From positions 10,782,311 to 10,846,310 of the forward strand of contig CAJINV010000001.1 of the NCBI GenBank assembly GCA_905178155.1: 64,000 nucleotides of DNA, read 5' to 3'. Every line of letters begins with the position of its first letter. The first letter of the stretch is position 1. This DNA comes from Amoebophrya sp. A120 (Eukaryota > Protista > Dinoflagellata). A program made the position numbers and the translations under genes. Of the stretch, positions 14,898 through 61,913 are shown in pieces. The notes under the pieces were generated by a model. That model worked only from the letters and a program-made list of their open reading frames with translations. It was not told the DNA's origin and made no database searches.

Positions 14898-17800
14898 ATG
14901 CTGACGAGACTATCCATCGGGGTCGCGGGAATGCGCTTGTTTCCACTCCTCCTTTATCTTCTGACGTGCGCCCTGCCGTTTCTACCAAGAGCAGATGCCG
15001 GATTTCGGAAGCACGGTGACGGGCGCTGCACGTTCGAGCAGGAAGAAGTGACCGGGATCAAAGCCAACCTGAACGGCTTCGATTTCCATGTGGGCTTCAA
15101 GCTGTGCCGCGACTACTGTGCGGGCGCGGGCACTTCCTGTTGGGGCATCACCTGGTCGCACTGCCGCCGAACTTGCACGCTGCACGGTATGCCTGCGAAT
15201 CTCTTCGCGGCGCAGCCGCTAGTTGGGGAATCCAGTCTGGATGAGTGTTCCATCGAGCCACTGACCCCCAGCCCGGCGCTCTTCAAAGCGGTAGGAGGGG
15301 TGAGTATTGGGACCGAACCGCCAACCGTGATGAACTCCGACGGGTTTTGCGACGCAGTGTGCCTCGTGCACACCATGGAATGCAGTGTGAAGGACAACAA
15401 CCACAACATCTTTGTGTCCGTCGGCAGTGCGGCGGGCGCGCAGCAGCTGAAGCTCATTGTGCCCGACGTACCCGCACTGCAGCCGGGCCGATACACGCAG
15501 GGTTACTGTCCAGCAGGGTACAACTTGATACCTGCAATTTTTGTTTTATTTCTTTCCTGTTGCCCTTATTCTATACCTACAGGTTTCATCTTCTCTGCTG
15601 TGTGTTTGTCTTTGACGTCATGCAGCTGGCTTGTTTGTTCGAGAACCCTCTAGAGAAGTGGTAGAGAAACTACAGAAAGTACTACATTCCAAACAGGTTC
15701 CAAGGGACTGTGGACCTGCTCTGCCAACTTGGCGAAGTGACCTTCCCACCTGGTGTCACGCAGCAAATGAAGTGCAACCGCGACTGCGCGAAGGGGACCA
15801 TCCAGGCGCTGGAGTCCAAGCAGGTGGTCGTCGTTCCGGCCATGGCGCATGGGTCGTTCCAGGACATCCCCTGCCCGGACGGGTACGGGGGCCCGCTGCG
15901 TTTGCGTTGCTTCAACGGGCAATACATGTACACCGACCAGAAATGCGGCCACGACTGCCCGGCCGGAAACATTTTGGACAACGGCGCGCTGCTCGGGTAC
16001 AACCCCATGCCCCATAGATCCACGCAGACCATCGTTTGCAAGGCCCCGTACCAGGGGGTCATAAACCTGCAGTGCGACAACGCGGTGGTCACAGTGCTTT
16101 CCGGAAACTGTTTGCTCGGTTGCCCCGTCGGCACGCCGGACCCGGTCACCAACATCATCATACCGGGCAGTCCCCCTCGAACCTTGCACCCGAAGGGTTT
16201 GAAATACAGCTACATGGACGAGATGGAAAGACCCTACACGTTAGATTACCCCGTCACCGTAGTCATGGAGCACGACGAAAAGCGCGTGGCCAACTGTCCC
16301 GGGCAGTATGCGGGTCAATTCGAAATGCACTGCTACCACGGCCAGATCGCGATCATCACCATTGGCACGCCGTGCGAGGCAAACTGCAACGACCTGCGGC
16401 CGTTCATGGCGGGCCAGTTCTTGAAGGCCATTCCGAGTGTCCCGGCGTACTTATCAAAAGGAAAAATCCCCCCTCCCCATATCAAAACGAAGTTTCTGAT
16501 GCTGGATTTGCGTACACAAATCAGATTTGGCTTGCTAGAGACGACTGCAGGCGTATGTCAAGCCTCAGTCGAGAGGTTTTGACGTAGGCGCCTAGCATGA
16601 CAGACGTGTATGCTCTAATCCCAACAGCATCACAAACCGCCTGCAAAATGCGGAACGCTTTCTGGACTTGCCTTCTTGCAAGACAGACAGGATTTGAGGT
16701 CACAAATGCGCATCACAAATTTTCAGACGGATACGTTTTCGATATGGGGAGGGGGGATTTTTCCTTACGATAGTACTCGGGAGAGGTGAAAAAGTTCCCC
16801 TGCGAGGAAACGGGGACCCTGATCGACGCAAAATGCGTACAGGATTTTTGTGCTTCTATCTGTGATGTTGAATCGATCGCACAGTATGCGCATATGGCGG
16901 TTTTTTTTTCTTGTCTTCAAATAGAAATCTTCGAGAAAACGTTATTTCCGGAATTTTTATACAGGTTCGGGGCCGGTTCCAGAGTCAGCAGGTCTGTTAC
17001 CGCAACTGCTTGCCTCAAGTTGTGTACCACGGCGGCATGCCCCTAAATCTGACGAACTCATCTAAGCACGGCGAGATCGTCCGGCGCGACTGCGAGACCG
17101 GGTTTTACGGCATCATCGAGATGGCGTGCGACGATGGTTGGGCATATGTCGCAACCTTCGAATGCGGTCAAAATTGTGCAGGAGGGCAGTTTCCCTTAGG
17201 GAAGGGTGTGGTAGTGTCCTTCGGTGAGCAGTTGCACCTGTCCACCTTCCAGGCCACTTGCCCTGATGGATATGTGGGAACGGTGATGATGAGGTAAGCA
17301 TAAGCAAACACTTGTTGCAACCTGCGGCTACTCAAAGGAAGTCTAGTTAAAAATGGAAGTCTCCGAGGGCGATCATCCTGTAGTCACATCTGAAAATGAA
17401 AGACCCCGGTCTGCAAGATTTTATCGAACCCTTCGCATGCATCTTCATTGCGCTGGGTTTTTTGATTCTTGCTAAACTAATGCGTTGTTTACTACACTTC
17501 CCGGTTCCAAAATTCGGGATGGTGTTATGCTACAGCGGCACAATAAATATGATACACCTACTTCTTCACCTGCACTCGTATCGACCACAATAAAACGTGA
17601 ACGGACGGAATGTGCAAGATTTTATCGAACCCTTCGCATGCATCTTCATTGCGCTGGGTTTTTTGATTCTTGCTAAACTAATGCGTTGTTTACTACACTT
17701 CCCGGTTCTAAAATTCGGGATGGTGTTATGCTACAGCGGCACAATAAATATGGTACACTTTCTTCACCTGCACTCGCATCGACCACAATAAAACGTGCAC

Positions 17801-20800
17801 GGACGGAGTCAATGCGTCATGATCTGAGCCAGATTTATTTCACCTTTGTTTCATCTGTATCTGCCAAACCCGATTCTCAGATGCGAAGACGGCACGCCGT
17901 CGTACCAAAGTGGTATCTGCCTTCCAACGACCACCACGACCACCACTACCACTCGCGCACTCTACTGCCACAACACAACCATTTCGCTCGCGTACAACGA
18001 CACACAGTACGTGCTTGCCGCGAACAAGTCCGGCCACGTCATGGCCTACAACGTTAGCAACCTGACCTACCTCTCCACGATGCAACTGCAGTGCCCGCCC
18101 GGGTTTGGCGGTCCCGTCGAGATCATGTGCGACGCGTGGGGGGCACTGGAGGAGTCGCAGTTGAAGACGTTTAAGGATAGCATGACGTTTCCGGGCAGTT
18201 CCGAGGCGGAGTACCTGAAGTACTACGACACGCAGAACTTCGCCACGGCGTCCTCAAGGGAGTTGGAACAGCAGGAGTTTGGAACGTTTTACAACGGCGA
18301 AAGTCAGGCGGACTACATAAACTCGCCAATGGGAGCAGGACGAGGCGGAGGAGCGGCGTCTTCTACTTCCAGTCTGGAACACAGTGCTCTTGGTGTAGGA
18401 ACAACGACCACAACATCGTCAAGTGAAATAAACCAAGAAAGGAGCACGAGAGCGTATTCTGAAGCCCCCCCGGCGCCACCCGCAGCTTCACACGGGCGAC
18501 AGTTGCACCATCCTGCCCTCCCCTTCGGGCAGACACTCCCCCCCGCGGAGCAGACGCGGCACGATATGGGTGGCGGCACGGAGACCTACCGCGGCTACAG
18601 CATCAACGTCGAGCAGGACTACAATTCGTTGCGGGGGCGGCCCTATTGGCGGGTCGCGACGTACTTGAATGCAACGACGTCTTTGTTTCCCCCCTACCAG
18701 TTCGACCACGCGCGGCGGTACGGTGACCAGTACTACGATGCATTTGACGAGAACAAAACGGACTACGGTCCGGGGCGGCCGTCGCTGCATCAGTACAACC
18801 TGGACGCTGCGCTCTACCCCTACAAGCAACTCCCGCGTATCGTCTTCGTCTCGCGCGTCACCTCCTGTGGGCAGAGCTGCTACGGGCCGCTGGTGTTCGA
18901 GCACTTCGACACGCGGTACGAAACGGGCAGCCACACGTACGAGGTAAACAAGAATCTCTTGCACGGCGAGGAGCACCACATCACCTGCCCGGGAGCGGGG
19001 AACCTGGTGCGGTTTGTGTGCTGGGACGGCATTTTTGTGAAGATGGACCAGACGGAAATCTGCGGCGTGAAGTGCGTGGTGAACGACCTGGCCGACGTGT
19101 GGCGCCGGTCCGGCCTCACGCAGCGGTTGGACTACAACACCACGCTGTCGATCATGTTCACCTTCGCCACGACGACGACGACTACTCCCCCACCCACCAC
19201 CGAGCCCCCGCCGCTGCTTCTCGGCATGACGCGACCGCCGATGATCACATCGGACATTGCGACCACGACGCCGGACCCGCTCTTTGTCACGGACCACTTC
19301 GACTTCTTTTCCGCGCAGAATTTCACGGGGTTCCAGCTGGAGCACATGGAGACGAAGCTGATGAGCTGCTGGAACAACCACAGCAACACGGACTTGTTTT
19401 CCAGCAACCCGTTGCTGCTCTGCTACAACGGAAATGTCACGTTCGGCTCGAAGGATTTTTCCTACGACGGGAAGCCACCGACGCAGGAGGATCGGGTCGC
19501 GGCCCTGCAGGACTCCGTCGCGTGCGGGCGGAACTGTCCCGCCGAGGGGTTTTTGTTCAAGATCGGGAGGGCCGATCCGAACTACGTGGGGTTTGCGCGA
19601 AACCCCTTCACGGAGAAGTACGGGCATCTGGACGAGGTGGGGGACGACCCGTTCACGTTGTTCCTGGAGTTCTTCTGGGGCAACCAGCCGACGGCCCGGA
19701 CTGAGTTTGAGGAGCACGAGTGGGACGTGGACGTCGACCCGCTGCTCGGGACGGATGGACTGCCGATTTACGACAACGGGGGCTACACGACGCCGGAAAT
19801 CAACATCGACCCGCGGACCGGTTTGGCGATCGGCCACCCGCAGTTCTCGTTGGAGTTTGGCCACTTCCGCCCGGTCCGCACGCCCGGGTTCACGTGGCGC
19901 GACGAGCTGCAGCGGGAGCCGACGTTCTCGTTGATGCGCAACGGGGAGCAGCATTCGCGAAACTGCGAGGACATCCTCGGCCGGAAGTCCGCGCCGGTCC
20001 CCGGCGTGCCGAACTCCGGCGGGCACAGCCTGTTCATGGGCACAGTTAACTGGCAGTGTCAGGACGGCACCGTGAATGTGCAGGCGACCTGCAAGCGGCG
20101 GTGCGTCGCGGCGCAGTACCGCAAGGCGTTTCCGGGGGGCAACTTGCTGTTACTCCCTCGCGACGATTCCGTCTACTACGACCACGGGGAGGAAGTTTTG
20201 ACGCCGTGCACGGACACAAACAAGTTCGCCAACGGCACCGGGATTTTGCGCGTCTGCGACGACGGGGAGCTGAAGATATTGGAGGAGAACTGCGTCATCA
20301 ACTGCCGCCCCTACATCTACCAGGGGACCATCGACGTGCTGCCCCCCCGGGTCGTCGAGCACGGCACCACGGACAACGTGTTCGAGTGCCCCCCGTACCT
20401 GGCCGTGGGAACCTACCGCGTGGAGTGTTTCAACGGGATCCGCAAGGTCCCCGCGGAGGACTTCACCTGCAAGCGGCATTGCCTGCCCCTGCGTCCCGGC
20501 GAACTGATCAACGACGAGTTTCGCCACGGATTCATCTACCACGACACCTTCCACAAGGGCCAGTGCGCGGACAACAGCACCATTTCCGTCGGGTGCAGCG
20601 ACGCGCAGGTGCGGATCGTCGGCGGGGACTGCGGGTTCCCGTGTCTGGCGGGGGAGATTCTGCTGGACCCGCGCCGGCCGCTGGACCCGCCCGTGCAGTA
20701 CCCGAAGTTCTACCACATGCAGACCCTGACGGTGTCGTGCACCGGGGGCTCGGTCGGGACGGCGGAGCTGCTGTGCCAGAACTCCCAGGTCACCGCGCAA

Positions 20801-44024: not shown

Positions 44025-45101
44025 TAGTGCAGCATCGATCTCTTCTTTTTAAGTACAACAATTTTAAGACCTTGTACCTTCCGCTGGCTGTGCAAGCAAG
44101 TAGGCAAAAGGTGCTTTTACTTAAAAGCTTTCGCTTTAATTGCAACTGTAGGTCTACCACAGCCTCAAAACCAATGTCATTTTGACCATAGCAGTTTCTT
44201 ATGGCATAGGACATTGACATCAGGAGTATGTAGGTACACAAAATGGAGTCGCTTTTTGGTCACGTCGAGGCGAAGTTTCCAGAATTTTGCGGTGAAAAAA
44301 AAACCGAGAAACCTGAACAATTGTTTATTACGGAGAAGTGTCGATTGCGTTACGGATATGCTGAACAGGTGTAGGTGTACAATTGATCTTTTTTATACCA
44401 CAGGAAAATGAAAAATGGCATAAAAATGAGAAGGATGACCAATGTCGTCTTTCAATGACGAATAGGAAATTTCTGTTCGAGCTACCTTCTAAAGATCGGT
44501 GAGTACTTATTCGAGTTTGTGTGCTCTCTTGTAGTGCTCTCTTGTCGTAGCTGCACTTGTATATCCATTTTTCTGCTCGTCCGCAGCTGCTGGTCGTGCT
44601 CGAAGATTCTTATAGTGAAAATTATCCTGTCTATTTTTGCAGCCCAGCTCCGTGATCCTCAGCCTCATCAGATGATTCGTGAAGTACTCAACGAAACAAG
44701 CCATCGTGAATTACGTGTCGCAAAGCAGTTTCTCTTCGTCATGATCGTGAAGGAAATTCGGTGCTGTCTATTCAAGATCGGTTCGTCGAAGTACGTGTTT
44801 AAGGCAGTTTTTGTATGCTTCGCGATAGTCATGACTAGCACACCGGCATCATGGAGACAAGTGCTTACTACAACAAGTTATTTTCGCCACCTCTACAACT
44901 TGTTTCCGCGACTCGTAACCAGTTTTTTTTTGCCGGTTCGGCTGTCGTTGTGACCTTAGTGGTGAAGTGATGGCGTAGTTTTTTTAAAAGACGAGATCCG
45001 GCACGACGCCAGCAGAAGACCGGGTAGTAAGTTGTACTTACACACTTTGCCCGACTAGAGATTTTATTCCAGGTCATTTCCACACTGTTCGTTGACAGCA
45101 T

Positions 45102-48100
45102 ATGGAGCCGCCGCCTGCCCCGGTGGTTTTGCCGCCGCCTTTACCCGATGCGAGCGTACCCGGAAGTCCGCCGGCGGACCAAACGGGCAGTCCGATGCTG
45201 CCGAACTTCCCCCCTCCGCCGCCCTCGTCGCCACCACCAGACAGCTCTCCATCTGTGGTAGATTTTTGTGGTTGTAGTTTGATCGTGATAATTTATTTTT
45301 TCTGTATTTTGTTATCGTGTGAGTGGTCGTTGTCGCAGCATCGATCGATCTAATCTTCCTAACACCCAGGTTTCCCCTCCGCAGCAACTCCACGACAGTA
45401 TGGGATCGTCTCAACAGCACTATCACCAGGAACAATCGGGTGAGCTGGTGCTGGAGTTGAATGAAGACCATCACTGGCACCAAAACGGAAACGAGCCCAG
45501 CGGGACGCAGCAGGGAACAAACAAGCACCAGCAGCAGGATTATTACAATTACAACAATCACCACGCCGCGCAATACTACTACGAGCAGCCGCATAACCCC
45601 TCTCAACACGGAGCGAATGGCGGGAGCAGTCAACACCACCGCAGCAACTCTGCCAGCGGAGGGTACTATCACGACCAGAATTACGACCATTACGGCACGA
45701 ACAATGGTAACTGGAACCAGTCCTCCTACTGGGCCTCGGGTTGGGGGGAGCAGCAGCATCAGCACGAGCACTCTCACATCAAACGCGTGGAGCATACATC
45801 GCATCATGGTCATCAAAACTCGTGTACTTACTACCGTTTTTTTGAAGTAATCATGTTGAATTCCGCTCTTGTTCTGAAAAGATGTTGTTACATTCTTCTA
45901 GTACCTTGAATCACATCACATCACATCACATCACATCACGAACCCTAAACCCTAAACCCAAACGCACGAAACAAAAAATCCCAGCCCGCCAAAACGTCGA
46001 GTACTTGCAGCAAAGCATGTTCAACGGGGGCACAAATCCATTTTTTCACGAGTACGGTGCGAACCCCAATTCTAGCCACCACCAACATCACTATCTGAAT
46101 GGAAACGCGCAGAAATTTGATTTTCACGCCAAAACCAGAAACCACGGCCACAACGTGTCGGTTCCCCTGCTCTCGGTCGGCAGAAGTAGCAGCATTGTTG
46201 TGGATTCCGTGACTGCCGCCGCCCAGGCAAAAAACCGCAGCGCCTCCGACTCCGAATGGATCGCGCAGTCGAGTAATACGGCCGCCGCGGCGCAGCAGCA
46301 CGCTAATACTTCTAGGCCTCCGCACCAGAGCACCAGCCACAGCTCGGGCCAAGCGTCCCCGGCGATCAACATCAATCCTCCGCAACAAGTACTAGCCCCA
46401 GATCATGTTTCGGATAACTCTTCTGAGGCCAGCTCGATTTCGAACGAGGTTGATTTTCCTGACCTGGATCAGTACTCCACCGACGATGGGCTGGTTGACG
46501 TGGCAGCCTTTCGGCAATCTGTCGAAGCTTCGCAGAGGTCTCGCACGAAGGGCTCGCTGGAGATCCGGCGATGCGCCGACGGCGAACTGGTGCCAGACGG
46601 CGTAAAGGTGCCCAAGGAAGTCATGAAGAGCGTGGATTTCTTCCTTGCCCTACCGCACAAGACGTTGCGGTCCCTGGACGCGATCGCGCAGGCCGTGCAG
46701 GAAGAGCAAATGTTCACCTCCACGCAGCAAATGGACGTGACCCCAGGAACGGCGGACGCCGGGCTGGATATCAGAACCGCGGACGGGACCACGTCAACGG
46801 TGACCGCAGAAGAACATCAACCCGCCGCCAATGCCGTTGACTTACTCAACGGCGGCCTCGTTGTTCCCGAAGTAGGTCTCGCCAACGTCTCCCCCTCCGC
46901 GTCGAAGGAAGGTAGCACCTGCGGGGCCAATGTCCGCCGGCAGGGGCAGGGCCGGCGAGCCAAGTACAAGATCGAGTTTCAGCTTCTCACGGGCGAGGAC
47001 GAGGCCGAACCAGAAACGCTGAAAAAGCGCGACGCCGTGTTCCGCCAGGTGGCGGCTCTGGTTGATGTCGCGAACCAGTCCGAGCACTGCGAGTTGAACA
47101 GCATCTCCGTTGGGGTAAACACAACCACGCCGGTGATTGCCGGAAACCTCGCGTCCGTGGTATTGCAGCGCGTGAAGGAGAGTTGCCACCTGCGCGAGGT
47201 CGTGGTGAAGAACATGGTGATCGGAAAGACGATGACGGCAGAAACCATTCAGATTCTGGCGGACCGCGGGGCAAGGGGTTGGCTGGAGAGTTTGTGTTTG
47301 ATCAACACGTGCATCGGCGACACGGGGGTTTCTGCCATCGTCGGGCACTTGATGCAGAGCAAGAAAAGTTCTTCAACCACTGCGGGCAGCAAAACTTCTT
47401 TCAAACTTGTCGAGCAGGGGGTGAATGGCTGCGGCCACGAGGCGGCGGGGGGAGCTTCCGGCTCGCAAACGGAATCCGAACAAGAGAACGCTCCTGCTGG
47501 TAGTTCGTCAGACGCCGAGACGCTGCAGCAAATGTCAAAATCGGCCTTGGAGAAACTGGTGGTGAAGGAACAGAACATCTCCCGTGCGGGCGCATTAATA
47601 CTCGCCGAGGCGCTGCGAACGCCGAACGCCACTTTGGCGGTCTTGGACCTGTCGAATAACCACCTTGGGTTGGACGGCGTTGACCGGCTCGGGGAAATGC
47701 TATTCGTATTCTGCATAAAGTTTTGTCCTACTTGTACTTTTCGACCTCATTCTGTGAAATACTGCCAAAAAGTAGTGGATCTGGATTCCTGTTTCATCTT
47801 TCCCGTTTCTAAGTTTGCGTAATCTTCTTGCACATAGATTATACTCGGCCAGCACTCTGTTGTATGCCGTGATAAGGATTCGCGTAAGAGTACTAGTGCT
47901 CGTGGTTTAATAGGAAGAAATGCCAATCAAATCAGGTCAACAAGTCGCTAAAAGAGCTTTACCTCCGGAACGTGGGGGCTATGACGTGCTCAGCTGTTAC
48001 AATCTCAAAGTCAAACGTTACAATAGAATATGGAAATCTGTGATGCGCGAGTGCATGATCCATCCAACTCTCGCAGGATTGCGCATGACAAGTTCCGGAG

Positions 48101-50476
48101 CCCCAAACCGCACTAGAATCTGGCGAAATTTGTGTTGCAGAAAGTAGAATGCTCTGCGAGTCTGTCATGCTCATCATGCAAGACAAATTCCAGATTCTAT
48201 TGTAACGTTTGAGATTGTAACACCTGAGCGGGTTATAGGGGCTTCTGGGAATTTCTGGAATCGCGGTTTGTTCAAGGTAGTGGCTATCAAATGTAAAAAT
48301 GTCTGGGTCTGGAAGAATGCAAGATTTGTCATGCATATTTCTCATGACCCATGATGCCTGTAATGCATGCCCTAGCATCACAGATTTTTTGAGGGATTCT
48401 TGATGCCCATTCCGCATGACAAATGCCCTCTCCGCGTAGCAAAAATTAGTCTCTGTTTGCTGCTCATGCAACACAAATTTTTTAGTCATCGAAACGCAGC
48501 ATCACAAGTTGCATTCTTCCAGACCCAGACATTTTTACATTTGATAGTGGCCGCATTGGAACAAAGCAACACGATATGGAAGCGTCAGGTTTGAAATCGT
48601 CAAAGTTGAAATAATTTGTAATGCATAAAATGCATGCCCCGAGGTGCGTGCGTTGCAGAGCAGGCAAGTGAGGCCGATTGTAAGCCTGTTTGGGGTTACA
48701 GCTCGAGCTGCTAAAGTAGCATGAGAAAATCACTCTTCTTTGCCTAGACAGCACGACAAACTGGATTTAGGGACCGCCGAAATTTGTCATGCGCCACTTG
48801 GAAAATGGGTTCCAACTGGCATCCATTTTATGCATGCCAACTGGCATCCATTTGTTGGCGAAAAGTAAGGTTTGTTGGCGAACAATAAACGCATCCGTTG
48901 GCGCAATGTAAGGATCGTTGGCGAACGTTAAACGTACTCAGTGGGCGAAAAGTTGGACTTGTTGGCGAAAAGTATGGTTTGTTGGCGCAAAGTAAGGATC
49001 GTTGGCGAACGCTAAACGCATGTTGGCGAAGTGAGGACTGTGTGCGAAACGTTGTGCGTGTTAGTATGGCGAAGTGAGGACTCGTCTAGCACGTTGTGCG
49101 TGTTAGTATGGTGGCCGGGATCGAAGCTTATGCCTTATTTTTATTTTTGTATGCGGCGACTCTTTTGGTCGGTAGCGCGTAGTCTTTTTATTCCGCTGCG
49201 TTTTACTCCATGATGAGCTTTGACACATTTCTTTTTGGCTGCTCGTTCACTACCCGCTGGCAGACACCTATTCTGTCATGCGAGTTTTGTGTTGCACGCC
49301 TGAAAAAATTTATAACTTCACTGTGTCGCCTGATCAAATTGCGAAAAAGAAAACCTAGATATTTATTTGTTTCGGAGGCCCGCATCCCTCCTAGCTCTAG
49401 TTTCTTCAGCCGATCCGAAGGTAGTTTGTATGTGTGCCCTGGCTTTCCGATATCGAGCTCTGTTTTGCATGCAAAATCGGAATGTCGCCTCTTGCGCGGA
49501 GTTGCTTGAGGACACGTTGTATGTTTTTGGGACCACCTACCTACTAGCCCGAGGGGGTGCGGGAGCCTGAAAAAAAAAGAAAGTAAGGAAAAGTTGGCGT
49601 AAGTGGGATCATGTGCCCGAGGATGATGGTGATGGCTTCGGTCCGCCTGACTCCACGACCTGGTGGCCGAACCATCTGCGGTGAGGTGCCCTTACAGGTT
49701 GTGTTGTGGTTTCGGTCGGTTTAGCATGACAAATTATTTCAACTTTGTCGATTTCAACTCTGACACATCCATACACGACTTTGGAGCTGCTCGACCTAGG
49801 ACAGAACAACATCAAGGACAAAACGGCGGGTAAACTGGGCGAGATCTGGAAGAAATCCGGGCTAAAGAAGCTTTTTCTCAGCGGAAATTGGCTCGCGGAA
49901 GAGGCCATATTCCAGATTTTGGAGTCCGTCGTGCAGCACGACCGGTTGGAGGTGCTAGACCTGGGCGAGACGAAGATGGGCCGCCTGCCGGCGCTGCGCG
50001 TCGGCACCATGCTGCGGAAGGTAAAGAACTTGAAGACGCTGCTGCTGCAAAAGAACCAATTCGGCAAGCACGGGGCCGCCGCCATTTTCGATGGGCTGAA
50101 GGCCAACCGGTCGGTGAAACGGCTGGACCTGATGGGGAACGAGATCTGCGACCACGGGGCGGTGGCCTGCGTGCACATGCTGTGCACGAACAAGACCTTG
50201 AAATACCTGGACCTGCAGCACAACCATCTCGCGGAAAAGACGGCGAAGACCCTCGCCTCGGTGATCAGCAACGTCAATTTGTGTCCACAGCTAACGGTTC
50301 TCAAACTGCAGAACAACAAAATGACCGCTGAGCAGATCCGTTCCCTGCGGAACGCCCTGTCCGCACGAAAAGCCGCGATCCATCCGATGACGAACGCGGC
50401 ACTGGTGGCCGCGGGGGCGAACAGCAACGAGGAGGAAGAGGTTTTCCAAAACCACGAAGCGGGGGTGGTCGCGTGA
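45102..50476 (+). CDS. RNI-like leucine-rich-repeat protein, multi-exon (5' exons uncertain)
   Basis: LRRs LESLCLINTCIGDTG, LAVLDLSNNHLG, LELLDLGQNNI, LKYLDLQHNHL; GT-AG intron 47706-47935 plus three introners give continuous MLFVNKSLKELYLRNVGASGNFWNRGLFKVVAALEQSNTTLELLDLG. Confidence 0.8.
45910..45962. repeat. (ATCAC)6 microsatellite followed by telomere-like CCCTAAA repeats
   Basis: ATCAC x6, G, then AACCCTAAACCCTAAACCCAAA. Confidence 0.75.
47980..48237. mobile_element. TIR introner family G, 258 bp
   Basis: ~60-bp imperfect TIR (TATGACGTGCTCAGCTGTTACAATCTCAAA... / ...TTTGAGATTGTAACACCTGAGCGGGTTATA); TSD GGGGC; frame restored. Confidence 0.9.
48285..48546. mobile_element. TIR introner family A, 262 bp (orientation 2)
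   Basis: Family A TIRs; TSD GTGGC; interior is reverse-complement relative to the 41497 and 53939 copies. Confidence 0.93.
48575..49773. mobile_element. TIR introner family F, 1199 bp, carrying an ~890-bp internal insertion
   Basis: ~50-bp imperfect TIR TATGGAAGCGTCAG.../...CTGACACATCCATA; TSD CACGA; removal gives SNTTLELLDLG; aligns to the reverse complement of 60061-60370 except 48837-49723. Confidence 0.9.
48854..49110. repeat. Degenerate tandem array of GTTGGCG(A/C)A units, period ~20-24 bp
   Basis: About 9 units starting GTTGGCG, followed by a duplicated ACGTTGTGCGTGTTAGTATGG. Confidence 0.8.
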
Positions 50477-51384
50477 AGAAATGAACCTCCTCCGCAGGAC
50501 GATTCCGGGTTTTTTTTTCAACATGACTGATTCTGATTTGCTTCGGCACGAGCTTCTTTTTTCGTTTTAACTTTTTATGCTGGCTTTTTATGAACATACT
50601 TTTTAGCCAAACGAAACTCCATTTCAGTTCTTTTGTGTTTCGGTTTCTCGATTCTAGCTCAACATTCTTCATCATTCTGATAGATAGACGCATCTTTGAT
50701 CGTGAAAGTCATAGTTTTCATCGTCTTATTTGACGGTTTCGTTGTGCACAGTCTACGCTAGGAAACAATTACCATGTTCATGCAAATTCTTTTTTAGTTT
50801 TAGGATCACGAATTATAAGAATCGCGTCGTATGTACCGTATTTTTTGTGGCTGTTGAGCCAGTTTTAACCGCACGCTTTTCCTATCAGAGGCCGAATTCC
50901 ACTTTTGATTTGGATAATCTGTAGTTAAGTTTGAATGCTTTTCTTGTATCATATAGAAAGTTTCGGCGTAATTTTCTAACTTGGAAACACTTATTAAATG
51001 CATGCACATAAAGATTGTCTCACCTTTTATATTTATCCAGCAGAGGTGGGTTACGCTTACGACCAGCACGGTCACACCTCGTCACAGTCCGTGTTTGCCT
51101 GAGAGTCCTTGAGAGTATCATGGATGAGAAATTTAGTAGGTTGTATATGTACCAGTGGAAACGGGTAAAAATGCCGTTTTTGAGTGTGAGCGATTCCAAA
51201 CTGGTGAACTTTAAGCCCAAGGCGCGATGGTAAGAACAATTCCAATTATTGTTACAGGACCCCATTATAATTTAAGTACGACTTTGGCTTTGCGCACGTA
51301 TTGGTATTCGGAGTTTCAAAAGTATTCTGGTGGATCTTAAAGATGTCACTTTGATCCTGTGCTCACACATACTGTGAAATAGAA

Positions 51385-53034
51385 ATGGGCTGTGGTGCCT
51401 CGATGCCCTCCACCGGGCCTCAGCCAGGTGCGCATTCTGTGATGGCCCGCGGGCCTGAGGAGGATGAGGAGCTCGTTGAGGTTTCGCTGCTGGATGAAAC
51501 CGGCGAGTTGCTAGATTGGGTGACCGCGCGCGTTTTGGAGCACCACCCCGCAACAACTGACGCGGTGACTCTGCGAAAGAAGAGGGTTTTCGTCCTCCCC
51601 ACTGCTGCGGCGAAGGCCCACGGGTATCCCAACGGCACGGAGCTGGTCGTGGATCCGCGGAGACTGCGGGAAAAGATGCCCTACGCGGTGGACACAGAGG
51701 ACGCATCGAAAATTCTTGCCGCAGGGAACGGCGGCTCCGGGGAAAGCTCGCGGGGGAGACGGAAGGAGGGCCTCTTAGACAACGATGACGAGAAGGACGG
51801 GCAAGCTTCGAAGAAGAAAGGGAAGAAGAAAAACACGCCGGGCGCAGACCTGCTTCCCTCGGCGGCCTTGATGGCGAACGACTTTCTTTCCGCCCCGGAA
51901 GAGATCCTTCTAGGGACCGGGCTCGAGGCGGTCGCCGCGCGCAACCCCTTCGGCCCGGAAGCAGTGCAGCTCCGAGAAAAGGTTGCCTTGTTACTTGACG
52001 ACGCGCCACATATCAAGCCCGCAAAGCGGATGGCGAAAGAACTCCGCGCGCAAAACGAATCGCTGACGACAACGAACGCGGATCTGGTCGCGGCGTTTCT
52101 GCCCAATCCCGCAAAGCTGTTTGAGTGGCGCATCGCGCTGCGGGCGCCAGACCGAACGCCGTACGCGAAAGCGATTTTTTACCTGCACTGCGATTTCGTA
52201 AACCGGACCAGCGGCGAATCGAAGTACCCATTTGAACCGCCGAAGCTGCAGTTCGCGACCCCGATTTTCCATCCGAACGTCTCCCAGCGGGGCAAAATTT
52301 GCTTGAATACGCTAAACGAGAAAACGGAGTGGTCCCCCATGATGGACCTGAGCATGCTGTGTGTCGCGGTTTCCGTGTTGCTGCAACAGCCAAACTGTGA
52401 GGACCCACTGAACACGCATGCAAGCAAGCTTTTGCAGAAACACCCCCCGGAGTTTAAGCGCCGTGCCCGCGAGTGGACGAAAAAGCACGCTTACTGTGAC
52501 CCAGAATTCGATCTCTACTCGAGGCAGCTGGAATATGAGCGAGATGCGGACTTCTCGCAACAAGAGGATCTTGACTACTTCTCCTCCTCCACAGTAGCGT
52601 CAAAGAGCCAATTGACAGGAGCTCATCCTGGTCGTAAACGTGGTCCCGGCCAGCAGCAATTTTCACTTGTCGAGTCCATACGGCAAGACCCGCAGCCGGC
52701 GACTTTTGCAAATCCGCTGTTCCACGGCAGTGCACCTGGTCAACCTGCTGCGCAAAGTCAAAGCAAACAGAATGACGGCGATTCGCTGACGTCTATTCTC
52801 GCCGGGAACAGACAGAAGCACGCAGCGAGGCAAGCGGGAGCAAACACGGGCGGTGCTTTCGGGCCCACAAGTGTTCCGGCCGCCGGGCTTCTACACTCCG
52901 ACCCCTACGCTGATTACCAGACCGACCGGGCAGGGCGTGCCTTGGATGACAGGGACGCTGGTCGCCGCATTCGATGGAACCACGCACTGGAACAGTATCG
53001 AGCCAAAAAAGAAATGAGTGAGCGATACTGCTGA
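51385..53034 (+). CDS. Ubiquitin-conjugating enzyme (E2) with long N- and C-terminal extensions
   Basis: UBC core TPY...YPFEPPKLQFATPIFHPNVSQRGKICLNTL...WSP with catalytic Cys; N-terminal MGCGAS acylation motif. Confidence 0.9.
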   Translation: MGCGASMPSTGPQPGAHSVMARGPEEDEELVEVSLLDETGELLDWVTARVLEHHPATTDAVTLRKKRVFVLPTAAAKAHGYPNGTELVVDPRRLREKMPYAVDTEDASKILAAGNGGSGESSRGRRKEGLLDNDDEKDGQASKKKGKKKNTPGADLLPSAALMANDFLSAPEEILLGTGLEAVAARNPFGPEAVQLREKVALLLDDAPHIKPAKRMAKELRAQNESLTTTNADLVAAFLPNPAKLFEWRIALRAPDRTPYAKAIFYLHCDFVNRTSGESKYPFEPPKLQFATPIFHPNVSQRGKICLNTLNEKTEWSPMMDLSMLCVAVSVLLQQPNCEDPLNTHASKLLQKHPPEFKRRAREWTKKHAYCDPEFDLYSRQLEYERDADFSQQEDLDYFSSSTVASKSQLTGAHPGRKRGPGQQQFSLVESIRQDPQPATFANPLFHGSAPGQPAAQSQSKQNDGDSLTSILAGNRQKHAARQAGANTGGAFGPTSVPAAGLLHSDPYADYQTDRAGRALDDRDAGRRIRWNHALEQYRAKKEMSERYC

Positions 53035-53049
53035 GCTTAGTGAACGGAA

Positions 53050-53109
53050 GATGGCGACTGTTTGATGTCAGAGCAAACGACGGCGACTGTTTGATGTCAG
53101 CGCGCAAAC
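53050..53109. repeat. Short tandem duplication (~29 bp)
   Basis: GA(T/C)GGCGACTGTTTGATGTCAG occurs twice, just downstream of the E2 stop. Confidence 0.8.
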
Positions 53110-53599
53110 TGGCTGGTTACGCAGTTAGCATAATCGCAAAATATGCTGCAATCGATGAATGTCAACGAACCAGAGCAACTGACTTTGGCTTCGGTACCAG
53201 CCTAGACACAAATTTGAATTTCTTAGTGTTCGAAGGCAATTTAGCGAAAGAAGTGGCCGCTAGATTGTCCATTTCCGGAAAAAAACGGTGCTGAGCGCTG
53301 TCAGAGTTCGTCAAACCCATTTCAAATGCAACCGCCTAAATCTATCCATTGTATTTGCGGTTTCCAAATGACAGCTGTTCCTGGCTCGGTAGTAGTGGGA
53401 AAAAATGAATAAATGAAATAGTTGTAATAATGAGTGCCACTTGTGTCTCGAGCGTTTTGAATGATATGACCGCTAGTATTGCGACCGGCTAATCGCGCGC
53501 TGATGGGTGAAAGAACAAAACACAACGGGCCACTTCCCCTCGCCTTTCAAGTTTTCCAGCAGCAAGGGTCCCTGCAAAAACTGACCACCTGCGGCCTCC

Positions 53600-56395
53600 A
53601 TGAAGCGGGGTGCCACACGGAGCGGGACTGCGTCTTCGCTACAGCGCAGCGCTACGTTCGAAGAGCGACTGCTGGAGCTTTCGACGAAGCTAGAAAACCA
53701 CCAATGGAAGGAAAACATAAAAGAGGAAGACCGCGTCTACGTCCAGAAATGGATGCGGCACGAGCCTCGTAATGTTTTCTTTGTAAAGTTGCTTTTATAC
53801 AACCCAAAAATACAAATACAATCTGCTGGGAATCGATCTGTTTCTTTGCTTCCCCTTTTCTTTGCAGGACGACACGCAGAGAATGAATCCTTTGGCTGCA
53901 CAACCAACTACAGGTCTCCGTCGTTTTCTGATCAGCTGTATCAAATGTAAAAATGTCTGGGTCTGGAAGGATCCGAATTTGTGATGCGAATTCCACAACA
54001 CGCGCAAATCTCTCATGCCTAGACAGCAAAAGATTCCCATTTTCTGTTACAAAACAGGGGGATTTGTCATGCGGATTAAGCATTGCGGAACGTTCTCGAA
54101 ATCTGTGATGCCAGGGCTTCCACGACAGACCTTCTGTGTCATGCAAAAACACCATTACAAAAATCTGCATTCTTCCAGACCCAGACATTTTTGCATTTGA
54201 TAAGCTGCAACACCGTAGACGACGCGTTTGAGTCGTTGAAGAAGGTCGCGGCCGACCGCACCAAGCACGACTTGTGGGGTCTGCACTATAAAGAGCTGTC
54301 GGAGACCGTGAAAAACGGGCTCAAGACGGGTGCCTTCTACAGTCAGGGGGTCTCCAAGGAGGGTTACCCCATCATCTGGCAGACCAACCGACGGCTGGAC
54401 TGCCGCCTCGCGGAGAAGGAGCGAATACGGGCCGTGGTGCTGGTGCTGGACTCGCTGGAGGCCAAGATGGACGACGGGCAGTTTGACAAGAGGCGGTGGA
54501 TCATTGTGATGGACCAGGCCGGCAGCCCGGCGTATGGCTCTCCGTCCCTGTCCTTCAGTAAGACCCTGTATGCTGTGCAAAAGCATCGTACTCGTATAAA
54601 TGCAGGTCTTGCATTACAAATTTCTTTTACAAGGCAAATCAGCATTACAAATTTTATTTCTCATGCTGAGAAAATTTGTAATGCATTTATACGAGTACGA
54701 TACTTTTGCATTTCATACCCTGGTCGGAATGACGACGAAGTTTTACCCAGAACTCATGTACAAAGTGTACATCATCGACGCGGGAACCATTCCGCATCTC
54801 ATCTTCTCCTTCATGAAACCCTTCCTCGGCGAGGGTGCACAGCAGAACATCAAGTTTGTCAAGCGGCCGCGGAAGAGCTCAATATCTCGGGCGTCCTCCA
54901 GTTCGTCCATCAGCGGCGGAAGTAGTGATGTTTTTTGGCGGGATCCTCCCACTTATTCTTGCACGACTTAGTTCTTGATTGAATCTGCAAACGCGCTGCG
55001 CGCTGCTTTCGGTGAATGCTTTACTTACTGCACCATTGGCGACATGATCATCAGAAGTCATCTAACTGGACCAAATCCTTACCACATGTCAGAGGCAAGT
55101 GCGCTGGAGAACATGGTGGAGCTTATTGGCGCCGAGGCGGTGCCTGACGATATCGGCGGCTGCAGCGGGTTTGAATGGAACGGTGAGCATATCCAAGAAA
55201 AAAACTGTGTTAGTGTAACTTTCTTTGGGTGACAGCATCACAAATTTGCTCTACATGACAGAAAAAACCTGTCATGCGTGGTTTGTAAGGGAAAACACAC
55301 ATGAAAAGAGGACTTGATGGCTGTCTGGCATGACAGACGTGCCTCTGTTGCAAGTTCTGCATTACAGAGTTACACTTACACAGTTTTTTTCTTGCATAGA
55401 GCAGCACTGGGAGTCGATAGTGCTGCTAAAGGAGCCACTGGTTCCCGACGAGGCCGACCCGCTCAACGTCCTCGAGCCGGCGGGTAAAAAAGGGCGCCGC
55501 TGGAGCCGCGGGCTGGTGCGGTCCGCCGCCGCAATGAAGAGCACGGCCGCGGCCTCTGCGACAACGCTGAAAAACACGGCGAAGCCGGTCCTGAAAAGGA
55601 TACCGAGTAAATCACGGGAAAAACTAAGCGCCGCTTCCAGTGCGGCAAGTACGCCGCAGACGGAGCACGGCGCGAGCCACTTGCAGGGCCCACCACAACT
55701 CACCAAGGAAAAGTCGCAGGACAGCCTCGCGCACAGCTCCTCCAGCGACGGGCGGACGCAGAACGCAGGAGTACCCCCAACCAAGCTGGGACCAGGCCAA
55801 CATGTGCGTGAGCGAGGTACTAGCTACTCGGTGGGCGATATTTTGCATTACAGAATCTCTTGTAGCATCTTGGTAGCTATCGTGATGGTCATCCTGCTAC
55901 GTACTTGTCGTTGCCCCTCCTTCGGCCCTCTGTGTAGTAACTGAAACGCGAGTGCAAGAGAAAGCAGTAGCAATCGTTTTCATATGTAAAAATTCAGGTA
56001 GTGGAACTTGCTGCACGCGCAACGACGAGCGGGAGGGTGGCAGTCGGTACTCGAGCAAGCAGAAGAATTTGCTGACGAGCAACAACACTCCCCCAGATAG
56101 TCAAGAAAAGCCGCGCGTGGAAGACGACGTTTTCTCGCTGTACAGCTTTCAAACCGTGCAAAGTAACGACTACAGTGCTCCTTTTGCTTCTCCGTCAGCC
56201 CCAAATGCAGTGCCGAGCAGCACCGTGGCCATGCGTACTGATAGATGTGTTTCTCCTTTGCAAGGATTTCTCGACTCTCAAGATGTTGCGTTTCAACTGA
56301 GAATCAATAGGAGCATCGAGATCTTATTTCGAGGGTCAAACCTAAAAACCACTCCGCAGCTTTACCGGTGGCAATACCTGAGAACAAGCGTTTAA
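53600..56395 (+). CDS. CRAL-TRIO/Sec14 lipid-binding domain protein, multi-exon (ends uncertain)
   Basis: GT-AG intron 53769-53913 plus three introners give HEPRLRRFLISCNTVDDAF..., GVSKEGYPIIW, WIIVMDQAG, FSKTLVGMTTKFYPELMYKVYIIDA, MKPFL...QNIKFV, AVPDDIGG. Confidence 0.8.
53939..54202. mobile_element. TIR introner family A, 264 bp (orientation 1)
   Basis: Family A TIRs; TSD AGCTG; removal gives FLISCNTV. Confidence 0.93.
54569..54717. mobile_element. TIR introner family D, 149 bp
   Basis: ~36-bp TIR TATG...TGCAAAAG(C/T)ATCGTACTCGTATAAATGCA; TSD CCCTG; removal gives SKTLVGMTTKFYPE. Confidence 0.92.
55190..55398. mobile_element. TIR introner family E, 209 bp
   Basis: ~31-bp TIR TAT(C/G)CAAGAAAAAAACTGTGT(T/A)AGTGTAACT; TSD GAGCA; removal gives WNGEQHWES. 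Confidence 0.92.
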
Positions 56396-57551
56396 AAGAT
56401 CCGGGGGAACGGTCTGGGTGTTGTAGCTGCTTTCGTTCGACGGCCCGAGAACCGCAACTAGATCGGATTGCGTGACGAGCAGGTCCCCAGTGTCAACAGC
56501 CGCGTTTCGCGTTGGAGAGCGGCTCCGTCCTTGCGTTCCCGACAGGGCAGTGAGTCGGTACACACGACACCCGTATCCGTTACTGCTTACGCGTCGCAAC
56601 ACTCGCGCGTAGAGTGGGAGCAGTATCTTTTGCGGTGCAGCGTCGGCTTTGGTTCTGGCCGACGCGGCCGGGTGTGCATTTCGTGTAGAATCGCCAATTT
56701 GATGTACGCCGTCTTCCTTCTTGTTGTGATAATTGCGCCGCACGGAAGATGCTGAGGCTTTCCTCGCATGCTTTAGCTAGTACAACGCAACTTTCAGTTT
56801 CGACGTATAGTACGAATGAAACGAAGAACATCTTCATCTGTACGATGGCGGTGCTTGCGAACCTTGTTTCAAACGTTGCGTATTGGTTTCGCAGTCGTGT
56901 ACCAGGAAAAAAATTTTATCGGAAGAACGCCGCGCCTTTCTTTGCGGCGCAGGCGGGTGTAGGTGGTACCTACTACTTTCTACTGGTTGATGTCACGCAC
57001 CGGACGCGGTCCCTCAGGAACCAGTGTTTTTCTGCGCCGATTTCCAAGAGGAAGAGTTGGAACAGTTCGGAAGAGGATCGGAAGATCTTTGATGTTGACC
57101 ATCTTCTGGTGGATTATCCGATGCGGCGCCATGGGCTCATTCAGGAAGATGATCCGTTAAATAATTCTGTGATCTAGTACTGTAGTGCGCAACAAGCTGA
57201 AGGAGCTGCATGTTGGAGATCCACAATTTTTTGCTCTGCTATCCGCGGCTGAAGCGTGGTCGCGGGGACGGTGAGAACCATGTCAACCTTTCGGATAATT
57301 GCTCTCTTCCTTTGACGACCCAAATACAGTCTTTCCTCTGTCATTTGTCTTTCTTATGTTCGCTCCAGAGTTTGTGTACTAGACCTTGGAAAATAGCCAG
57401 GTCGACGTGGAGACCAAGAGTTTATTTTTCTAGTAAGTACAGGCTTTTTGTTTTTACTTTTTGTTTTTACTTACCTAGAGCTACTTCAGCTTTGAGGAAT
57501 GTAGCGACTTTTTTCTTGGGAGAAAGGACTAGTTTGACACAACTCGTCAAA

Positions 57552-60500
57552 ATGAGCGGGTCTACCACCTCCGTTCCCGAGGATCCCGCCGCCCCACCGG
57601 TGCATCTGAGTCCTACCGATCGTGATCCGTTTTTTGGCACCCTAGGTAACTTGTGCTTTCGGAAGGCGGACGCACCGGCGAAGAACTGGGTCGGTGCGCG
57701 TTCCAATGTCGGCGTCAATCTCGCAAGCGGGGGGAAGGTCGCCTTTCAAGTCCTCCTGAAGACGCCGGGCGTGGCGCGGTTTGGCTGGAGCACGAAGGAT
57801 GCCACACTCGAACTGGGTATGGACGCGAAGAGCTTTGGCTGGGGCGGGACCGGCACCAAGAGTACGAACAAGAAGTATCAAAAGTACGGGCAGACTTTCG
57901 GCGTGAACGACACGGTGCTCGCCGTCCTGGATGCGGACCGACACACAATCACCTACTACAAGAATGGTGTGGCCGCCGGCAGTGGGGACGCGTTTTGGAT
58001 CCCGCGAGAGCTCTGGCAAGAGACCTTTTACGCGCACGTCCTGACGAAGGAAGCAACTTTCTGCGTCGACTTTGCGGACGTTCGAGCGGGGTCGAAGTTC
58101 CCGCTGCCCAAAAACGCGAGCTGGCTTGCCGCACGCCGCCCGGGAGCCGTTGACCTGCGGCCACGCAACGCCGGAATCCAAGAGAGCGGAGCAGGCGCGT
58201 ACGGATATTTCAATGCGCACGCAGACATTGCCGCGGTCCTCGCTACTTCCGCATCAACTTCCGCCTCCTTTGCCTACAACCCTCCGGGACGGATGAATAA
58301 TGACGCCGCTCAACAACCCGCAAGCGATCCGAACTTCAAAAGCCAGCACACCTTGGGACAGGAGAAGCCGTGGCACCAGGCAAAAACCGAGTATGTGAAC
58401 CACTTCCGGGAGTTGCTGACGCACGAACACAAGGCCGAGAAGGACAAGCTCGCGAGCCGTGTCCGCAGGTCCTTAGACAGCCTGCAACGCGACGGCTTCG
58501 GGGTGGGGGGCCAAGTTTTGGACCGCGGACTCGCCGAGGACGTCGAGAAACACAATAGTAACCATCAAAATCAAAAGTTTCTGCAATTGGCGAAAAACGG
58601 CGAGCTGACCTTGCGGTGCGCCTCGCGGCCGTTTTTCCCCTACCTTTCGGAAGTGCACGTCGGCCGGGAGGTGGTTGTCACGCCGGAGACCCTGACGCCC
58701 GATCCGGACGACGGCAGCGTCAGCATTTTGGCGGACGTGGTGAAATGGACACCCGACAAGAAGTGTCTGATCATTCAAACGTCCTTCAGCCTGTTGCCTC
58801 GTGCCGCGAACGGGAAGTACCGGCTGGACCTCTCTTGCAACGTGACGACGTTCAAGCGAATGGATTTGATTCTCGACGCCATCCAGCGGGACGGCGGCGC
58901 ATCCAACACGCAGATGAAAAAGGACAAGTACCGCCTCGGACTGCTGCTTTCCGGCACGCCCCTGGCTGCCGCCGTCTGCGCGGACATCAAAAAAACCTCA
59001 TCCGCGGCCCAAAAGTGGGACCCGCTGGACCGCGCGTCTTCGGATGCAAAAGCCGCCATCAGCGAGGCAGCGGCGGCACGGCCGCAGGCCGCGAATGCGT
59101 ACGAAACGAAGTCGGATCTCGGGGAAGCGAAGCAGGTGGTCGCGGAGACTCTGAACTTGTCGCAGAAAAACGCCGTTGCGCAGGTGCAAAACCGGAAGTT
59201 GACCTTCATCCAGGGGCCGCCAGGTACCGGGAAGACGACGACCGCAGCGGCGATTGCCGTGGAGTGGCTGAAGAAAAACAAGGGGCCGGTGTTGTGCATA
59301 TCAAATGTCAAAATGTCTGGGTCTGGAATAGTGCGTGATTTGTCATGCTGCTTTTCCATGACCCATGAGGTCTGGAATGCCGGACCTAGCATGACAGATT
59401 CTGCGAGACCTTTGTAATGCCTATTCTGCATCAGGAACTACCTCCTGACTTGGTCAAAATTGGGCGACTTTTGGTAATCATGCAACACAGATTTTTGCAT
59501 ATCAAAAGGAAACATCCCCCCTCCCCATATCGAAATGGAAATCTGTGATGCAGGATTTGGGTACACAAATCGGATTTGTCTTGCAGTAGGGCATCGCAGT
59601 CAGATCCTCGGCCTAGGTAGGGGCGTATAGGTCTAGTTGCTTAGCATTGCAAACGGGTGTCCCCTAGGCGCAACAGCATGCCAAATCGCTTCCATAATGG
59701 TGCGGAAGCCTCTGCGCTTGTCTTCTTGCAAGACAGACGTGATTTGTGGCCTCAAATCAGCAACACAAATTTTCGGAAACATACCTTTTCGATATGGGGA
59801 GGGGGGATTTTTCCTCAGAATATTGCATGCTGCAGATTTAGCATGACAAGTTGCAATCTTCCAGACCCAGACATTTTTACATTTGATAGTGCACCGCGTT
59901 TTCCAACAAGGGTACGGATCACTTGGGGCAGGTGCTGACGAACAAGTTTAAGCTGAACGTGGTGCGCGTGGGGCTTTCGCCCGTCGATTTCTCGCTCGAC
60001 GCACTGATAGAGCAGTACGGGGGCACCTTAGCCAGCATCATCTACGACTGGGCGGACGTATATGGAAGTGTCAGAATCGAAATTGACAAAATCGGAAAAT
60101 TTGTGATGCACAAAATCGATGCCAGTTGGGGCCTCAGTTTCCAAGTGGCACATGACAAATTTCGGGAGCACCCAAATCCAGTCTGTCATGCTGTTGGGGC
60201 AAAGAGGGCTGCTCCTGGCATGCTACTTCGGCAGCAAATTGCATACCCCTAAACAGGCTACCTTACAATCGGTCTCATTTGCCTGCCCCCCAATACAGGT
60301 CTTGCGTGCCATACATTTTATGCATGACAAGTTTTTCGATTTTGTTGATTTCGATCCTGACACTCCCATAACGTAGTTTGCGCGACCTGCGTCGGCTGCG
60401 GGATGTCGATTTTGAAAAAGTTCGAGTTTCCCTATGTGATCATCGACGAGGCCTCGCAGATCGTGGAGCCCGCGGCGCTGATCCCCTTGACGCGCGGCTG

Positions 60501-61913
60501 CGTGCAGTGCGTGATGGTCGGCGATCAGTGCCAGCTTCCTCCCACCGTGATGGCCGACGAGGCGGCTCGGGGCGGGCTCGGGGTGAGTTTCTTTGACCGG
60601 TTGATCCAACAGGGGATGGAGGTCTTCATGCTGGATACGCAGTACCGCATGGCCCCGGTGATCAGCGCGTTTTCCAGCGCCCGGTTCTACGGCGGCAAGC
60701 TGCAGAACGGGGTTTCGGACCAGGACCGGCCGTTCGAAAAGCTTCGCGTGCACGGGGGGGAGTTTTCCAATTTGATGTTCATCCACGTCGAGGCTTGGGA
60801 GCAAACGAGCGGCTCTTCCAAGTCGAACGACGAGGAGGCGAATTGTGTCGTGCACCTGGTCGAGCATTTTTTGAACTGCCGAGTGTGTCCCTCTATCAAA
60901 TGCAAATATGTCTGGGTCTGGAAACTTGTGATGCTGAATTGCGCATGATTGAAGCGCTTCCAATGGCAGCCAAGCATGACAAGTTTTTGAGACGCCCGCT
61001 GATGCATAGCACGCATTACAAATTGCGTTTTTGCATGACAAAGAAAGTTTCTCTTTTGCTGCTCATGCAACACAGATTTTCCAGGGATGCTTGACACGCA
61101 TTACAAGTTCCACTTTTCCAGACCCAGACATTTTTGCATTTGATACCCGCCAAGGAAATTGGCGTGATCAGTCCGTACTCCGCGCAGGTGGGGAAGGTTC
61201 GGAGCCGGTTGTCGAAGTGGACCAACACGAATCCGGAGGTGAAAGACGTCCAAATAAGCTCCGTGGACGCGTTTCAGGGATCGGAGCGCGAGATCGTATT
61301 GGTGTCGCTGGTGCGCGCGAACGCGGAGGGCAACCTGGGTTTTGTGCGGGACTGGCGCCGGCTCAATGTGGCGCTCACGCGCAGCAAGAAGTTTTGCGGA
61401 GTGGTTGGAAACTTGAAAACGCTGGCGAAGAGTGCGAGTAGCATCACGCACGAGATGCTGCGGTTCCACTATCAACAAGTGAAGAATTGTAGTTCTGGCA
61501 GGTCGGAAAACAAGCGCGCGGCTTTCGCCACGTGGGACGCGGTAGAGAAGGAACTGCTGCCGTTACCGGGAAATTTCTTCGACTCATACTTCAGCGAAAC
61601 ATTCTTGCATCCACGAAGTAGAAGAGCCGCAGCAGGGGCACCGCCGGGAGGCAATCGTGCGGGGGAAGTACTAGCCCAGCAAGAAATTATATCCGCAAGT
61701 ACAGAAGAGACGCCAGTAGTGGAAGTCGATTCAGGCGAGTCCTGGTTGAAGGTTGTCGAAGTTCAGCCAATTTTGGCGGAAGGAGATGAGGAGGACTGGG
61801 ACCAACTGATGCCCCCTCCTCTCATCCCCGCCGTTGATGGAGAGGCACAACCTGGGTCCACCGGCTCCTCAGCAAAAAGACCGCGCGCGGAAACCCAAGT
61901 GGATGAATGGTGA
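57552..61913 (+). CDS. SPRY domain + UPF1/DNA2-NAM7-like SF1 helicase, interrupted by three introners
   Basis: SPRY (RFGWST..LELGMDAKSFGWGGTG.KS.NKKYQKYGQTF); helicase motifs LNLSQ, IQGPPGTGKT, CTAFSN, VVCATC, IIDEASQ, GDQCQLPP, QYRM, GVISPY, SSVDAFQGSE, RRLNVALTR in one frame after introner removal. Confidence 0.9.
59299..59888. mobile_element. TIR introner family A (orientation 2), 590 bp including a nested family B copy
   Basis: Family A TIRs; TSD GTGCA; removal gives GPVLCTAFSNKG; length without the nested copy and its TSD is 262 bp. Confidence 0.93.
59500..59822. mobile_element. Family B element nested inside a family A introner, 323 bp
   Basis: TATCAAAAGGAAACATCCCCCCTCCCCATATCG...CGATATGGGGAGGGGGGATTTTTCCTCAGAATA; TSD TTGCA. 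Confidence 0.92.
60061..60370. mobile_element. TIR introner family F, 310 bp
   Basis: TATGGAAGTGTCAGAATCGAAAT.../...ATTTCGATCCTGACACTCCCATA; TSD ACGTA; removal gives DWADVVCATCVG. Confidence 0.92.
60894..61145. mobile_element. TIR introner family A, 252 bp (orientation 2)
   Basis: Family A TIRs; imperfect TSD CCCTC/CCCGC; removal gives CRVCP(A/S)KEIGVISPY. Confidence 0.92.

Follow-up and report, generated by a model that had tools for sequence, protein, structure and literature searches.

The closest described relatives of the insertions reported here are the introner elements of the dinoflagellate Amoebophrya sp. A120, a parasite of algae. Farhat et al. (2021) counted 29,850 of them in 1,954 families, about 240 nt long and supported by RNA-seq, reported more than 60% non-canonical introns and proposed an alternate splicing mechanism (PMC7789003). 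According to the same source, their inverted repeats start with TAT and pass through seven loose positions into an A-run, their borders are non-canonical, and their direct repeats measure 3–5 nt (5 bp in the legend of Fig. S19). We analysed a 64,000-nt stretch of A120 contig CAJINV010000001.1 (positions 10,782,311–10,846,310, forward strand; hereafter the window), in which elements with TAT...ATA ends and 5-bp target-site duplications (TSDs) interrupt the coding exons of five genes. These are non-coding inverted-repeat transposons lying in intact genes, and we consider it likely that they are removed from the RNA, together with one TSD copy, by a system that recognises their paired ends.

Other descriptions bear on this locus. 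Gozashti et al. 2025 (PMC12130899) treat A120 introners as DNA elements with terminal inverted repeats (TIRs) and file family 38 under Ginger with the entry '5-bp TSD, TA/TA Termini', and their main text describes that family as being without typical Ginger termini and TSDs. Their TSD calls for the other families vary from 2 to 6 (40 of the 58 A120 rows), whereas the TSD here is uniformly 5 bp. The nonconventional introns of euglenids and diplonemids are alike in having paired ends, TSD-like repeats and no GT-AG (PMC11282704, PMC12621601); RNase III-type, tRNA-type or spliceosomal removal has been proposed for them, and circles are reported for Euglena. Lineage and end motifs differ from ours, and no circles have been shown for Amoebophrya. 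Non-canonical introns of Fritillaria borealis share the TIRs, the TSD and an origin from miniature inverted-repeat transposable elements (PMC11282704), but have a preferred AG-AC/AT border and a divergent U2AF (PMC11282704, PMC13326754), in contrast to the absence of any preferred border here.

Judged by protein identity, the window comes from the same strain as the A120 introners, and we see no difference in kind: TAT ends, loose positions 4–10, the A-run, the direct repeat and repeated members are all present, and removal from RNA is seen in contig pieces that end at 4 of the 13 sites and in an empty interior of element 7. On this sequence evidence the elements are almost certainly the published introners. 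The observation is real and precisely described, and it is already known: the literature describes the TAT ends, the 5-bp direct repeats and the RNA support and proposes an alternative mechanism of splicing (PMC7789003, PMC12130899), and the initial annotation had itself pointed out that Amoebophrya introners with inverted and direct repeats were reported. The question of how tens of thousands of non-canonical Amoebophrya introns are removed was raised in 2021 and is rediscovered by the present observation; no paper resolving it was found in a search that left subscription papers mostly outside. A word search of the main text of PMC7789003, figures excluded, returned no mention of a test of orientation, of nesting, of a subterminal motif or of a branch analysis, and 'nested' occurs 0 times in the passages of its supplement that were searched; the motif or the orientations may already be in the published figures. 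The constraints added here, which narrow the answer, are removal blind to orientation, no preferred dinucleotide or TSD, a single motif common to the families and tolerance of nesting.

Elements and their host genes

Scanning the whole window for TAT..ATA flanked by a 5-bp repeat recovered 12 of the 13 elements of the initial annotation, together with one nested element, and an unbiased inverted-repeat scan of the window recovered the GCGGT element (41497–41746). All 13 were therefore found with their listed TSDs; the TAT start claimed for each holds for 12 but not for the GCGGT element, which starts TAC, and the total was incomplete, since a nested 14th (59500–59822) and a decayed 15th (38366–38547) exist. 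A stricter scan, which combined TAT..ATA, a TSD allowing a single mismatch and a TIR match of at least 22/30, gave 13 matches in the window and none in any of 20 dinucleotide-shuffled versions. Left-end identities resolve seven TIR families, as had been estimated.

16452–16772: element 1, family A, 321 bp, TSD GTACT, in a gene for a large cysteine-rich (putative surface) protein
38366–38547: element 15, family G, 182 bp, decayed TSD CACCA/CGCTA (3/5), in a short unidentified open reading frame (ORF)
39641–44026 (+): diflavin (flavodoxin + NAD-binding) reductase gene, 1172 amino acids (aa) after removal
40114–40434: element 2, family A, TSD GGAGG, in the diflavin reductase gene; the sole GT-AG-readable element
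41161–41439: element 3, family C, TSD CGAAG, in the diflavin reductase gene
41497–41746: element 4, family B, starts TAC, TSD GCGGT, in the diflavin reductase gene
46002–50476 (+): LRR gene (3' part modelled), with one canonical intron and elements 5–7
47980–48237: element 5, family D, TSD GGGGC, in the LRR gene
48285–48546: element 6, family B, opposite in orientation to 4 and 8, TSD GTGGC, in the LRR gene
48575–49773: element 7, family E, 1199 bp, TSD CACGA, in the LRR gene
53600–56395 (+): CRAL-TRIO gene as in P0004, with canonical introns and elements 8–10
53939–54202: element 8, family B, TSD AGCTG, in the CRAL-TRIO gene
54569–54717: element 9, family F, 149 bp, TSD CCCTG, in the CRAL-TRIO gene
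55190–55398: element 10, family G, TSD GAGCA, in the CRAL-TRIO gene
57552–61914 (+): SPRY + Upf1-like (AAA_11/AAA_12) helicase gene, 1064 aa after removal
59299–59888: element 11, family B, 590 bp (262 bp without its insert), TSD GTGCA, in the helicase gene
59500–59822: element 12, family A, TSD TTGCA, nested in element 11
60061–60370: element 13, family E, opposite in orientation to 7, TSD ACGTA, in the helicase gene
60894–61145: element 14, family B, imperfect TSD CCCTC/CCCGC, in the helicase gene

Taking out each element with 5 nt produces stop-free models of the helicase (1064 aa), the diflavin reductase (1172 aa) and the LRR protein (836 aa). The window exons equal NCBI Amoebophrya sp. 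A120 proteins at 100% identity, and the junction models match the database proteins at 12 of the 12 junctions compared, with 0 differences over each of these three lengths and agreement at 3/3 CRAL-TRIO junctions, which bears out the earlier claim that removing the element plus one TSD restores the frame. The frame is likewise open across element 1, the comparisons with database proteins and RNA having covered other elements. Frame alone permits 2, 5 or 8 extra nt and does not fix the amount removed; orthologue alignments, to another strain or an MMETSP transcriptome, set the number at 5 wherever they are gapless, as is so at 5 of 9 junctions (helicase 2/3 and diflavin reductase 1/3 against A25, CRAL-TRIO 2/3 against an MMETSP transcript). 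P0009 was rejected as an independent LRR orthologue, being identical to the LRR model.

DNA and RNA runs were compared over 47500–61700, a span holding 9 of the 13 elements. Contigs of DNA run X1 lead out of unique flank, where depth is about 44, and cross 12 element ends; the elements are thus present in DNA and no common empty site exists. Summed DNA depth over the elements is high. Run X6 was only guessed to be RNA; one of its contigs lacks two canonical GT-AG introns, its 239-letter middle piece matching exactly, and X6 therefore holds spliced RNA. At elements 7, 8, 9 and 10, X6 contigs part from the genomic sequence exactly at the TSD edge and continue elsewhere. Five letters of the upstream exon are visible at element 8, the break at element 9 is located where a 6-letter overlap predicts, and depth is 0 inside element 7 vs 11.7 in the next exon. 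These data establish in part that the elements are present in DNA and removed at the RNA level. Element sequence joined to other flanks also occurs in X6 and may be precursor RNA or DNA. The raw RNA runs X9 and X10, probably from another strain, yielded 10 and 4 partial reads, every one of them on an element, and left the genes uncovered; judging by the X9 reads, the same elements may be present in a related strain. At window position 59888, X9 reads join a family B end to another flank. An X6 contig also implies a canonical GT-AG intron at 56235–56359 that is absent from P0004, whose C-terminus may be mis-annotated.

Several arrangements within the window are of interest in themselves. Element 12 (family A) was inserted at a TTGCA site inside the family B element 11, and the pair could be removed whole or stepwise. 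Two micro-exons, 48243–48284 (42 nt) and 48552–48574 (23 nt), separate three consecutive elements of three families. The short ORF at element 15 gave no match in a Pfam search; were this element spliced, it would show that TSD identity is not required.

Ends, orientation and splice borders

A larger sample was obtained with the TIR pattern from one contig set of a metagenome collection, comprising at least 147 loci (256,131 nt) at which splicing was assumed rather than read from RNA. With the window included, a perfect 5-bp repeat flanks 171 of 270 TIR pairs, and each other length from 3 to 9 occurs at most 3 times. Resolving cross-pairs left 229 pairs (170 perfect, 20 matching at 4/5 and 39 worse); the 39 were dropped as largely cross-pairs or internal repeats, and one more was dropped by hand. 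No TSD letter bias is evident across the sampled loci, and TSDs are no better conserved than inner TIRs (mismatch 3% vs 2–4%), imperfect TSDs accounting for 12/95 in coding context.

TAT stands at 366 of 378 ends, a figure favoured by the scan, which required 5 of 6 letters, and A occupies TIR positions 11–13. Mismatch between the arms is 31% at positions 4–8, 2% at 11–13, 4% at 16–28 and 3% in the TSD. Further inside, TTGTNATGC has 32 copies in the 4,664 nt of element sequence in the window vs 0 in the 59,336 nt outside; its 8-letter core is found in 189/190 elements, mostly 33–34 or 41–43 nt from an end, and its N position is never T (0/174). This internal motif, TTGTVATGC, is common to all families and symmetric at both ends, and its multiple, spaced, symmetric copies fit transposase binding sites of one superfamily, making it a putative transposase binding site. 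Because TAT ends, A-run, 5-bp TSD and internal motif are all shared, the comparison suggests that the seven window families are sub-families of one transposon superfamily, rather than several transposon families exploiting one system, as had first been thought. Ginger transposons end in TGT...ACA, unlike the TAT...ATA ends here; the elements would work in the manner of integrase-type transposons, and we make no claim that they belong to Ginger. At the sampled loci (L001–L147), families B and F repeatedly show end variants, TATGCATTG and TATGAAATG among them, which suggests end exchange or shared ancestry of the two families.

Element orientation relative to the gene was assigned with a codon model trained on window genes, which was correct at 10/11 window sites (not an independent control). 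The frame is open after removal for 137 of 176 outer non-window elements; 87 of the 176 passed the strand thresholds and 89 were dropped. Family B lies in the same direction as the gene in 21 cases and opposite in 23, with 10 unclear. The window gives the same picture on a small scale, elements 4 and 8 opposing 6, 11 and 14, and element 7 opposing 13.

Sliding each window junction through its registers allows GT-AG only at 40114 (1/13, with GA-AG possible there too) and GC-AG or AT-AC at 0/13, in agreement with the initial annotation; its count of six registers per site needs adjusting to 6–8 at perfect TSD sites and 2 at the imperfect one. In the larger sample, GT-AG registers occur at 5/77 vs 4.3 expected, which is chance level, GC-AG at 3 vs 3.8 expected (n = 77) and AT-AC at 2/77, both strands. 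As a class, the elements accordingly lack both the GT/GC-AG borders of U2-type introns and the AT-AC borders of U12-type introns; minor snRNAs are moreover reported absent (PMC7789003). In-frame cryptic GT-AG pairs lie within 30 nt of all 13 sites, and their use is opposed, where testable, by the gapless orthologue alignments and the RNA piece ends. At the level of the DNA, then, the anatomy, the intact hosts, the occurrence in either orientation and the lack of a dinucleotide signal stand out clearly.

Candidate removal mechanisms

Since orientation does not matter, TSDs are random and splice dinucleotides stand at chance level, the paired ends are the one signal that the elements still have in common. 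Removal works without splice dinucleotides and is probably directed by the ends of the element, and end guidance as such we regard as likely; of the shared end-recognising system first proposed, these two parts are supported, and the convergence of several families is not. In the scheme we favour, a staggered 5-bp cut would insert the element, as its TSD indicates, one integrase-type, Ginger-like transposase would spread all families, and the TIRs would form an RNA stem that brings the element ends together. Folding predicts a long stem for each of two elements (z −9.9 and −6.9). Imperfect TSDs can locate the cut. At element 14 the annotated database protein keeps the upstream TSD copy (Ser811); if the annotation follows the RNA, this retained upstream letter places the 5' cut within 1 nt of TAT, so that at this one site it would fall at TAT or 1 nt before it, and the 3' cut 4–5 nt past ATA.

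As to the enzyme, our committed guess, held with a little less than even confidence, is a structure-guided endonuclease with an RNA ligase, a combination already put forward for the nonconventional introns of euglenozoans; cutting and ligating is favoured over an altered spliceosome mainly because no 3' dinucleotide exists. More tentatively, most introns of this organism might be removed without the spliceosome, by a cut-and-ligate activity reading the UAU/AUA-closed stem either way, with a 5-nt stagger mirroring the DNA cut of the transposase. If true, every insertion of one transposon superfamily would be silently repaired at the RNA level; such a second mRNA splicing pathway, neutralising a transposon, would matter for intron origin.

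A number of points weigh against end-guided removal of such transposons. The database proteins are annotation and depend on the aligner, 4 of the 9 junctions lie in gapped regions without gapless orthologue support, and the RNA support consists of contig piece ends rather than read-through letters at 4/13 sites, with upstream letters at the junction for element 8 alone (5 letters). The high mismatch at TIR positions 4–8 often reduces the stem end to a 3-bp A-U helix, and stem folding follows from the TIRs and does not show a splicing role. GA-AG registers number 7/77 vs 3.3 expected (p 0.049, uncorrected for 3 tests). No transposase was found in the window by Pfam scans, which included two ORFs of element 7 without a match, or by tblastn of the window Copia pol against element 7 and the at least 147 loci, which also gave no match; viral contigs returned 0 matches when searched.

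The strongest competitor is an altered, U1-independent spliceosome, possible but on the doubtful side, for which the stem would bridge the ends, the constant UAU would act as the 5' site, the inward GCAUVAC motif ~33–43 nt from the 3' end would serve as branch site and distance would set the 3' site. Branch-site consensus sequences have a U-N-A-C core, which the motif shares, and its presence at both ends would make it usable in either orientation. A120 has retained almost the full set of spliceosomal proteins together with U2/U4/U5/U6, U1 not having been found in that survey (PMC7789003), and Fritillaria has changed its spliceosome for non-GT-AG introns (PMC13326754). Yet Fritillaria keeps AG-AC/AT (PMC11282704), whereas no 3' dinucleotide is present here. 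Nor is the motif better kept at the 3' end: it is perfect at 62 vs 62 of 100 5' and 3' ends (sign test 26:23), an equal intactness that reveals no branch-site asymmetry, it is weak at 3/13 window 3' ends (5/8, 5/8 and 6/8), and by prediction it lies base-paired within the stem.

Skipping of the element by RNA polymerase, with a template hairpin and the 5-nt duplication realigning the nascent RNA so that intron RNA is never made, would explain the independence of orientation and sequence and the upstream TSD copy kept at element 14. We consider it improbable given the imperfect TSDs in coding context and the element sequence joined to other flanks in X6, ambiguous as its origin is, and we know of no RNA polymerase II precedent. 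Still less credible are junctions created by reverse transcription, which would mean that the mRNA keeps the element and that the genes are dead or ribosomes hop. A hairpin with a short direct repeat is the usual substrate of this artefact, and all RNA support here is cDNA; false introns of such origin exist (PMC8240250). However, the interior of element 7 is empty while flanking exons are covered, and genes that host 3 insertions apiece are free of any further stop or frameshift. DNA-level excision like that of ciliate internal eliminated sequences, which transposon anatomy would permit, or an assembly artefact, is very improbable, since DNA contigs lead from flank across 12 element ends without branching, at about 44×, leaving at most a minor empty-site fraction, as contigs drop rare forms.

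Other features of the window

The window also holds an apparently intact Copia-type retrotransposon whose long terminal repeats (LTRs) are 280 nt long and 99% identical, with TG..CA ends and the 5-bp TSD GTTGT. Its two ORFs, a 393-aa gag-like one and a 1402-aa pol (RVT_2, weak rve), share a frame with one TGA between them, an arrangement that suggests stop read-through. Copia as mobiliser of the TAT...ATA elements is not supported, given its TG..CA ends and lack of similarity to them.

31689–37967 (−): Copia-type LTR retrotransposon
51385–53034 (+): ubiquitin-conjugating enzyme gene (UQ_con), a single ORF without elements
17400–17810: tandem duplication of ~200 nt, inside the canonical intron 17294–17880

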